Shown in pieces: positions 26,640-28,093 of a stretch of 64,000 nucleotides of DNA (position 1 is its first letter; every line of letters starts with the position of its first letter). The position numbers and the translations under genes are program-made. The stretch lies in contig OY760142.1 in the NCBI GenBank assembly GCA_963663225.1, positions 948,333 through 1,012,332 on the forward strand, written 5' to 3'. Source of the DNA: Nitrospirota bacterium. Its GTDB lineage: Bacteria; Nitrospirota; UBA9217. The notes beneath the pieces were generated by a model. It worked only from the letters and a program-made list of their open reading frames with translations, ran no database searches and had not been told where the DNA came from.

Positions 26640-26942
26640 TTACCCGCAGCAGCTGCCGCTTTTTCCTGACGTGTCGCTGCACCCGCAGGTCGGCTCCCCG
26701 CCAGTAATCATGCTGTTGATGATGGCGGCGGCGCATCCCACGCCGGCCTTGACAATAATGGCGCCGAAATCGCAGTTCCGGGCGCAGGCGCCGCATTCCA
26801 GACACAAATCCTTGTCCGTAACAGCGGCCCGCTTTTCATGCATGACAAAAACTCCGCGCGGGCAAACCTCGACGCACCGTCCGCACCCCGCGCATTTGTC
26901 CGCGGCATATTCCAGTGTCGTAACATCAGCGAGATATTTCAT
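26640..26942 (-). CDS. hgcB: mercury methylation ferredoxin HgcB (2x[4Fe-4S] ferredoxin with C-terminal Cys-Cys tail)
   Basis: Two CX2CX2CX3C(P) motifs (CAGCGRCVEVCP; CLECGACARNC) and a C-terminal ...GSCCG. The ATG at 26942 overlaps the hgcA TGA stop (ATGA). Confidence 0.9.
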   Translation of the reverse strand: MKYLADVTTLEYAADKCAGCGRCVEVCPRGVFVMHEKRAAVTDKDLCLECGACARNCDFGAIIVKAGVGCAAAIINSMITGGEPTCGCSDTSGKSGSCCG

Positions 26943-28093
26943 AGAATCCCCCATTCAGCAATCTTGTACAAAACCACCAGCAGCAGCGTTATTCCGGCCG
27001 AGCTGATATAAACCGGAAGGCCGAGCTTCAGCTCTTTTTGCACCCCGGACATGCCGGTAAATGTCGTTGACCCGGTGAATTGAAGCGCAATATACGAACT
27101 CAGCAGAGGAAAAAACAGCCACGCTATGACAAGAAGCAGGACGCTGCTTTGCAGCGCCGCGTTCAAAAACAGCATGACTGCCGACAGGGCCACCACGCCC
27201 ATGAGCCACCCTTTCACCGCAAACGAGCGGACCGGGATGAACGGGAGCAATACCGGTGTCAGGAATGCTCCCGCGACGATTGCCGCAAACCCGAGCAGCA
27301 GAAACGGCAGGCCGCCGGTCCATGCCTGCTGGAACAGAATGCCGGAAGGCTGAAGACCGAAGATGAGCAGAACCGCTGCGGCAAACCACGGATACTTTTT
27401 CATGAACGGGTTGATCTCCATCGGAGTGAGAACAAGCCTGTCAAGCAGGGAAAACTGCATAAGACTCATCTCCTTCGTTTTCCTGTACCCTGCCCTGATG
27501 TAGGCAGGAATATCGGCGGCCTGCACCGGGCCGTAGGAGACGGTGAACCCTGTTTTCTTTTTGACTTCTCCCGAACTCACTCCCACGGCCCCGAGTTGAG
27601 GAACAATGATCCTGCGGTGACTGACCACGGCGTCCAGCTTTGCTCCCTGGATGCGCTTTATCAGTTCATCCGTGCCGAACGTCCCCTTGCCTGCCGCGCA
27701 CCAGACATTGATTCCCTTGGTATCCAGCACCAGAATCCACGCGTTCATTCCCCTCAGTTCGCGCCGGAGCACATCGAAGCTGAACTTGTAATTGGCGCTC
27801 ACGAAGACATCGGATTCGTTTGATGGTTCTCCCACCGCGTACAAGCCCGGTGAAACAGTGTACCGCGTGCGGAAAGCGCTGATTCTGCATTTGATCATGC
27901 CCCAGTAGTCTGACCGGGTCCATTCGGTTGAAACGTTCCGGATTGTGCCGGATGTCGAGCGATCCCAGCCAAGAGTAATCTGCGGCAGCGCCTTTTCCGT
28001 GGAGCAGCATGTTTTCGGGGCAGGAGCTGCACAGCAGGATTCATCCGGTTGCTTGTTCTCGCGAGGAAGAATGGTCAGTTTAATTTTTTGCAT
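26939..28093 (-). CDS. hgcA: mercury methylation corrinoid protein HgcA (CFeSP-like corrinoid-binding domain plus C-terminal multi-TM domain)
   Basis: Diagnostic cap-helix motif NVWCAAGKG (GINVWCAAGKGTFGTDEL). The C-terminal region has about 5 hydrophobic helices. The start ATG at 28093 has an AGGAAAGG RBS. Confidence 0.9.
   Translation of the reverse strand: MQKIKLTILPRENKQPDESCCAAPAPKTCCSTEKALPQITLGWDRSTSGTIRNVSTEWTRSDYWGMIKCRISAFRTRYTVSPGLYAVGEPSNESDVFVSANYKFSFDVLRRELRGMNAWILVLDTKGINVWCAAGKGTFGTDELIKRIQGAKLDAVVSHRRIIVPQLGAVGVSSGEVKKKTGFTVSYGPVQAADIPAYIRAGYRKTKEMSLMQFSLLDRLVLTPMEINPFMKKYPWFAAAVLLIFGLQPSGILFQQAWTGGLPFLLLGFAAIVAGAFLTPVLLPFIPVRSFAVKGWLMGVVALSAVMLFLNAALQSSVLLLVIAWLFFPLLSSYIALQFTGSTTFTGMSGVQKELKLGLPVYISSAGITLLLVVLYKIAEWGIL

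Follow-up and report, generated by a model that had tools for sequence, protein, structure and literature searches.

HgcAB systems and the locus under study

The mercury methylase HgcAB has been characterized both genetically and biochemically in Pseudodesulfovibrio mercurii (Desulfovibrio desulfuricans) ND132, in which, as at the locus described here, hgcB is located immediately after hgcA. In the HgcAB reaction the corrinoid is methylated in its Co(I) state in a manner dependent on S-adenosylmethionine (SAM), the cap-helix Cys of HgcA serves as the lower axial ligand and the methyl group is transferred to Hg(SR)2 (PMC11588087). Mutagenesis in ND132 revealed the importance of Cys93 of HgcA and of Cys73 and the Cys94/95 pair of HgcB; the cluster ligands of HgcB are cysteines 20/23/26/60 and 50/53/56/30, and its tail cysteines together with Cys73 have been proposed as a shuttle for Hg(II) and CH3Hg+ (PMC7305189). 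In the phylum Nitrospirota, HgcAB proteins are reported to cluster monophyletically (as Nitrospirae, PMC7438021). Here, an hgcA-hgcB pair is described at positions 26640-28093 of a window of 64,000 nucleotides, i.e. the whole stretch of DNA that was analysed, which covers positions 948,333 to 1,012,332 of the forward strand of contig OY760142.1 (assembly GCA_963663225.1, Nitrospirota bacterium). Judged from its sequence, this locus is very probably, with a probability of about 0.9, a bona fide two-gene hgcAB module encoding a mercury-methylating complex.

The original prediction for this stretch had placed an hgcA-hgcB pair at 26640-28093, composed of a 384-amino acid (aa) HgcA with the cap-helix motif NVWCAAGKG and a C-terminal multi-helix membrane domain, followed by a 100-aa partner that overlaps the hgcA stop codon as ATGA and carries two CX2CX2CX3C motifs and a C-terminal CC tail. 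All these features were found as predicted, with the addition that both genes lie on the minus strand, which had been left unstated. Their exact positions are given below together with the evidence that distinguishes the pair from related proteins.

Assignment of the pair to the HgcA and HgcB families

The proposed identity of both proteins was validated with curated NCBIfam equivalog models, which are hidden Markov models with their own cut-offs. HgcA scored 394.5 bits against NF040863 (HgcA_corrinoid; cut-off 275), matching profile positions 1-323 of 325, and HgcB scored 117.5 bits against NF040864 (HgcB_ferredoxin; cut-off 99), matching all positions 1-93 of 93. At the same time, both proteins remained below the cut-off of 285 of the model for fused HgcAB-like proteins, NF043039, with 197.2 bits for HgcA and 54.4 bits for HgcB.

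HgcA shares its corrinoid-binding fold with the large subunit belonging to CFeSP (corrinoid iron-sulfur protein), and hence the pair could be mis-read HgcAB, namely a CFeSP of the AcsC/CdhD type from the Wood-Ljungdahl pathway accompanied by an unrelated ferredoxin. Such a reading draws on the fact that the sole Pfam match of HgcA is the generic family PF03599 (CdhD, 48 bits), with HgcB matching ferredoxin domains, and that several databases name HgcA homologues 'acetyl-CoA synthase subunit gamma/delta'. In addition, a PDB sequence search with HgcA returned CFeSP large subunits only, aligned over their residues ~318-441, and no HgcAB entry. However, the CFeSP gamma model NF003195 reached only 72.8 bits, well short of its cut-off of 306, with a match confined to positions 322-445 of 450 and thus to the last ~125 positions, and in the alignment a Thr of CFeSP occupies the position of the HgcA cap-helix Cys. 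Furthermore, no CFeSP model or chain aligns beyond HgcA residues ~78-201, leaving the five-helix membrane domain without a counterpart, no acs or cdh genes are adjacent to hgcAB, and the partner passes the HgcB-specific model with Cys70 and the CC tail in place. With NVWCAAGK and the CC tail present and the best matches not being AcsC proteins, a CFeSP identity can be regarded as already refuted, and assignment to HgcAB is retained.

An AlphaFold model of HgcA, built from a 26-sequence alignment, was used only for helix positions and as a fold-level cross-check. Using Foldseek, its best match was the published computed model of ND132 HgcAB (9a0b_A; E 2e-17, 37% identity, 327 columns), and the next matches were CFeSP chains, which superimposed with a root-mean-square deviation of 2.5-2.8 A over ~124-128 residues.

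Domain organization of HgcA

The hgcA gene (26939..28093, minus strand) encodes the membrane-anchored corrinoid methyltransferase of the pair in an open reading frame of 384 aa, with an ATG at 28093 and a TGA at 26939-26941. A ribosome-binding site, GGAAAGG, precedes this ATG by 6 nt, and the MQxxK start recurs in homologues; an alternative GTG start 24 codons further upstream would extend the protein to 408 aa and overlap the upstream gene. Following the N-terminal extension (aa 1-50; 27944..28093, minus strand), predicted to be disordered (predicted local distance difference test, pLDDT, ~30), HgcA contains a Rossmann-like corrinoid-binding domain at aa ~51-201 (27491..27943, minus strand), as delineated by PF03599, the CFeSP alignment and Foldseek. 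Within this domain lies the cap-helix motif NVWCAAGK (27686..27709, minus strand), which with the following Gly spans aa 129-137 and whose Cys132 is predicted to serve as lower axial ligand of Co. This motif is invariant in the homologue alignment, and a cap-helix motif is carried by all 120 best-listed HgcA homologues. By chance, the window translated in six frames should contain only ~5e-6 matches to the eight residues, and NVWCAAGK is one of the six cap-helix motifs accepted at high stringency by the Hg-MATE consensus protocol (PMC10087281). The C-terminal part (aa ~235-380; 26954..27391, minus strand) forms a transmembrane domain, a part of HgcA that is essential in ND132. Kyte-Doolittle hydropathy and the AlphaFold helices (assigned by DSSP) agree on five helices at ~aa 235-255, 262-281, 291-314, 318-344 and 355-380; in the AlphaFold model, a moderate-confidence prediction, the first helix spans 235-260 and the last 348-380.

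One of the structural features of this HgcA is the presence of two CC pairs, Cys20/21 and Cys29/30, in its N-terminal extension (ESCCAAPAPKTCCS). Among the 120 best HgcA homologues, 38 have a long N-terminus, of which 34 contain at least one CC pair and 14 at least two, and the 82 homologues with a short N-terminus have essentially no Cys before the conserved domain. Thus, as far as these sequences indicate, the Cys-rich extension is common to a subclade of Nitrospirota-type HgcA. A literature search found no description of such a Cys-rich HgcA N-terminus, which is absence of evidence only.

Cysteine motifs of HgcB and integrity of the module

The hgcB gene (26640..26942, minus strand) encodes a 100-aa ferredoxin with two [4Fe-4S] cluster motifs and a Cys-rich tail. 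Its ATG overlaps the hgcA TGA by 4 nt (ATGA), reading CTATGAAA, and by this arrangement hgcB appears translationally coupled to hgcA. The first cluster motif, CAGCGRCVEVCP (CAGCGRCVEVC followed by Pro, aa 17-28; 26859..26894, minus strand), contributes Cys17, 20, 23 and 27, and the second, CLECGACARNC (26772..26804, minus strand), contributes Cys47, 50, 53 and 57 and is followed by Asp58 (aa 47-58). Located 12 residues after the second motif, Cys70 (26733..26735, minus strand) is the counterpart of the essential ND132 Cys73, and this spacing is identical in 77/77 HgcB relatives. The protein terminates in the tail SGSCCG with the Cys98-Cys99 pair (26646..26651, minus strand), additional tail cysteines being Cys86 and Cys88; most of these relatives likewise have CC at or beside the C-terminus. 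The first nine HgcB cysteines correspond to the ND132 positions minus 3, with the CC pair at 98/99, and all mutationally important ND132 residues have counterparts in this HgcAB.

Several observations weigh against the assignment of this pair as a functional mercury methylase. The AlphaFold model of HgcA is only of moderate confidence: its mean pLDDT is 60, the corrinoid domain reaching ~80 while the N-terminus and the cap-helix loop, which lacks its cofactor in the model, stay below 50. The second cluster motif of HgcB ends in CD, as compared to CP in ND132, and its CLECGA fails the literal Hg-MATE motif C(M/I)ECGA (PMC10087281). Finally, the contribution of Nitrospirae to methylmercury production has been called unknown (PMC7438021).

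As to the sequence departures, neither the Leu of CLECGA nor the Asp after the second motif sits at a metal-ligand position. The C(M/I)ECGA motif is an operational high-stringency hgcB filter of the Hg-MATE protocol (Capo et al. 2022) and not a biochemical definition. Since the affected position is not a ligand, the change from Met/Ile to Leu is conservative and the curated model accepts the protein, the departure is attributed to a weakness of the regular-expression filter rather than of the gene. In the 77 HgcB relatives the second motif reads CMECGA in 66, CIECGA in seven, CLECGA in three (including the near-identical L081 copy) and CMECSA in one. Likewise, Pro follows the first motif in 77/77 relatives and the second in 27/77, so that 50/77 share with this HgcB the presence of Pro after the first motif alone.

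The departure from C(M/I)ECGA is also what would suggest an hgcAB-like copy that is decayed or does not function, akin to the fused HgcAB-like genes of non-methylating hosts. This is very improbable, as the Met to Leu change is conservative at a non-ligand position where Ile is already accepted, hgcA and hgcB are unfused, intact and linked by translational coupling, the fused-type model stays below its cut-off and all mutationally essential residues are present. Moreover, comparison with the L081 copy (96% nucleotide identity) gave ratios of nonsynonymous to synonymous substitution rates (dN/dS) of 0.25 for hgcA and 0.06 for hgcB, a pattern that indicates purifying selection on hgcAB. All hgcA-positive isolates with unfused genes that have been tested methylate Hg, and it is because every such organism does so that the probability of a functional methylase is placed at about 0.9 (PMC10087281).

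Relatives, host and evolutionary history

HgcA has thousands of homologues in the protein database, of which P0001, encoded on a 122-kb JGI metagenome contig, is 94% identical, and the rest of those listed are at most 71% identical. The close contigs amount to three metagenome or metagenome-assembled genome (MAG) contigs only, L081 and L082 (94%) and L083, the last identified via an 86%-identical upstream gene. As only these three are close and everything else listed reaches no more than ~71% identity, the locus seems to belong to a distinct Nitrospirota sub-lineage. In species-representative genomes the nearest HgcA proteins, among the matches listed, come from Nitrospirota MAGs (52-67% identity, with ~65% for the closest of them), and the adjacent topoisomerase IV subunit A (parC) shares 83-87% identity with proteins that bear the names Nitrospirota or Nitrospiraceae. 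From these two sets of identities the host is placed as a Nitrospirota bacterium, with hgcA agreeing with the host phylogeny. A single NCBI/ENA contig of 3,255,001 bp carries the window proteins, with P0245 as an identical HgcA; the genome is already public and apparently closed.

A comparison of 82 related loci revealed an hgcB homologue directly after hgcA in 77 and the cap helix in 79. The side of the locus comprising hgcB, yjbQ, parC and CpXC is syntenic in L081, L084 and L085, with yjbQ just downstream of hgcB also in L001, and the upstream side is variable. The conserved order hgcAB-yjbQ-parC fits the reported monophyly of Nitrospirae HgcAB (PMC7438021). Taken together, synteny, host-concordant phylogeny and dN/dS argue for a module that is intact, under selection and kept by vertical descent, and against a pseudogene or a recently inserted copy, and indicate that hgcAB is a long-standing chromosomal resident of this Nitrospirota lineage.

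Proposed mechanism

The steps of methylation can be carried over from the biochemistry of the ND132 enzyme, the present sequence showing the parts only. By analogy, the two [4Fe-4S] clusters of HgcB would relay low-potential electrons to HgcA, whose corrinoid would be reduced to Co(I). SAM, and not methyl-tetrahydrofolate, would then methylate Co(I), generating CH3-Co(III) stabilised by thiolate ligation from Cys132. In the last step the methyl group would pass to an Hg(II) bis-thiolate, probably presented by the C-terminal cysteines of HgcB, with the release of CH3Hg+. The organism should be able to make methylmercury in anoxic conditions, given a supply of corrinoid.

Genomic context and the question of native function

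Upstream of hgcA, three genes are encoded on the same minus strand: a sufC-like ATPase gene (30589..31305) and a gene for a SufB/D-family protein (29661..30596), both identified by family matches, and a gene (28105..29664) for a 519-aa secreted thioredoxin-like polytopic membrane protein with a signal peptide and a CPHC domain. In this run of five genes ending with hgcA and hgcB the successive spacings are -8, -4, +11 and -4 nt, and hence hgcAB probably form the end of a transcription unit of five genes. A scan of 26000-35000 yielded 8 promoter-like and 17 terminator-like sequences, as compared to 6.9 ± 2.2 and 11.1 ± 3.4 in shuffled sequence; as both counts differ from the shuffled means by no more than about two standard deviations, they are not taken to define a transcription start. 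Downstream, yjbQ and hgcB are convergent and 10 nt apart. A GC-rich inverted repeat with a T-run (26633..26654, plus strand) begins 4 nt past the yjbQ stop and covers the 3' end of hgcB; it may serve as a shared or bidirectional terminator.

Neither the sufC-like nor the SufB/D-family protein reaches an equivalog cut-off, be it that of SufC, SufB, SufD or SmsB. For the 519-aa protein, a Pfam search to E 10 left the membrane half unmatched and gave only sub-threshold glutaredoxin/thioredoxin matches for the CPHC domain. Its family comprises more than 6000 homologues, mostly without a Pfam domain on record, and occurs also in contexts without hgcAB. In two other Nitrospirota genomes (L086, 200-2200; L087, 6001-8004) homologues of this gene are immediately followed by an LMWPc (PF01451) gene. 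Thioredoxin-coupled ArsC arsenate reductases belong to the LMWPc family, and this adjacency would hint at a thiol-redox or arsenic link.

The trio of sufC-like, sufBD-like and 519-aa genes accompanies hgcAB only in L081/L082 and L083, the upstream genes being different in L084, L085 and the P0002 contig. The 519-aa gene was considered as a general HgcAB partner and rejected, as it lies beside hgcA only in L081/L082 (by tblastn) and L083 (by gene calls). Given this restriction to the closest relatives and the large size of the 519-aa family, found elsewhere without hgcAB, the trio is not counted as part of the Hg-methylation system. It is nevertheless conceivable, if quite doubtful, that in this sub-lineage HgcAB is part of an extended unit to which the N-terminal CC arm of HgcA and the probably co-transcribed upstream trio contribute. 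Speculatively, and by analogy, the disordered CC arm could act as an extra hand-off site for Hg(II) or thiols, like the CC tail of HgcB or the vicinal cysteines of Mer proteins, and the SufC-like/SufBD-like pair with the thioredoxin membrane protein could supply Fe-S maturation, trans-membrane thiol reduction or metal(loid) delivery. In that case, methylation rate or substrate access here would depend on components that the ND132 model system lacks.

Further upstream, ~5 kb from hgcAB and on the same strand, family matches identify arsR, encoding an ArsR/SmtB metalloregulator, and acr3, which overlap by 4 nt (33163..34610, minus strand). In L081 and L083 the ars cluster additionally contains ArsP and an ArsE-type Thioredoxin_3, and in L081 also DUF2703. 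The cluster in the window is a reduced version without ArsP, Thioredoxin_3 and DUF2703, with a gap of 238 nt at 34611..34848.

Physiologically, a true HgcAB homologue might have a native job other than Hg methylation, such as methyl transfer to another metal(loid) like arsenic or a thiol- or C1-linked reaction, and methylate Hg only on the side. This possibility differs from the explanation preferred here in physiological purpose only. Its appeal lies in arsR-acr3 on the same strand ~5 kb upstream, the added ArsP and Thioredoxin_3 in L081/L083 and the LMWPc gene after 519-aa homologues in the two other Nitrospirota genomes. Co-localisation of hgcAB with ars genes and arsenic-responsive control by ArsR have also been reported (PMC7438021; preprint 10.1101/2022.10.17.512643), and possession of hgcAB reportedly does not lower the susceptibility of an organism to Hg (PMC7305189). 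However, at this locus four unrelated genes with intergenic gaps of 91-153 nt split arsR-acr3 from the hgcAB run, the upstream neighbourhood is not conserved among relatives and no HgcAB is known to have a demonstrated alternative substrate. A different native purpose is thus considered unlikely, though a real contender, and the pair continues to be read as a mercury-methylating module.

Other features of the window include, by Rfam, a 6S RNA gene (63284..63465, plus strand; 101 bits) and two tRNA gene pairs (6950..7132, minus strand, and 54537..54745, plus strand). A protein with a HerA-like helicase C-terminal domain is encoded at 49964..51439 (minus strand; PF05872, 754 bits) and is unrelated to hgcAB.

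Significance

The present analysis marks a Nitrospirota genome as that of a likely methylmercury producer, to the extent that gene content can tell, and the wording of the original prediction, "potential methylmercury producer", is the right strength of claim for this organism. The analysis contributes a complete and well-supported hgcAB locus from an apparently closed genome, in a phylum for which nearly all known methylators come from MAGs; should the organism prove culturable, this genome could serve as a useful reference. The surprise value of the finding is low, since hgcAB of Nitrospirota are well documented, curated models recognise these genes directly and the genome is one already in the public record. 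A practical lesson is that metagenome surveys which apply C(M/I)ECGA literally can reject an otherwise canonical hgcB and would drop the gene of this lineage. Beyond the reference locus and this lesson, the understanding of HgcAB is unchanged.

Comparison with known systems

Like its ND132 counterpart, HgcA from this locus is composed of a corrinoid-binding domain followed by five transmembrane helices and contains NVWCAAGK with the axial Cys, its 37% identity to the ND132 HgcA model extending over essentially the full length; HgcB is in both cases an 8-Fe ferredoxin with an extra conserved Cys and a C-terminal CC. The two systems differ in the ~50-aa Cys-rich N-terminal extension with its two CC pairs in the present HgcA, and in the CLECGA sequence, the CD-ending second motif and the extra tail Cys86 and Cys88 of the present HgcB. 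The context also differs, as no arsR2-type regulator is located directly upstream here, where instead the sufC-like, sufBD-like and thioredoxin-membrane genes precede hgcAB, and as the host is a member of Nitrospirota, not of Desulfobacterota like ND132. Among the matches listed from species-representative genomes, the nearest relatives of this HgcA belong with the Nitrospirota HgcAB that MAGs have revealed (McDaniel et al. 2020, PMC7438021; Hg-MATE, PMC10087281).

Among more distant systems, the fused HgcAB-like proteins (e.g. of Pyrococcus furiosus, NF043039) have cap-helix, membrane and ferredoxin elements in common with this pair. However, they are single polypeptides whose tested hosts do not methylate Hg (PMC10087281), whereas the genes here are separate. 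The CFeSP gamma subunit (AcsC/CdhE) of the Wood-Ljungdahl pathway shares with HgcA a homologous Rossmann-like corrinoid-binding domain with a cap helix, but it has a Thr in the cap helix, no membrane domain, an N-terminal [4Fe-4S] domain of its own and a TIM-barrel partner subunit. The methyl source of CFeSP is methyl-tetrahydrofolate, delivered via the methyltransferase MeTr, while HgcAB uses SAM (PMC11588087).

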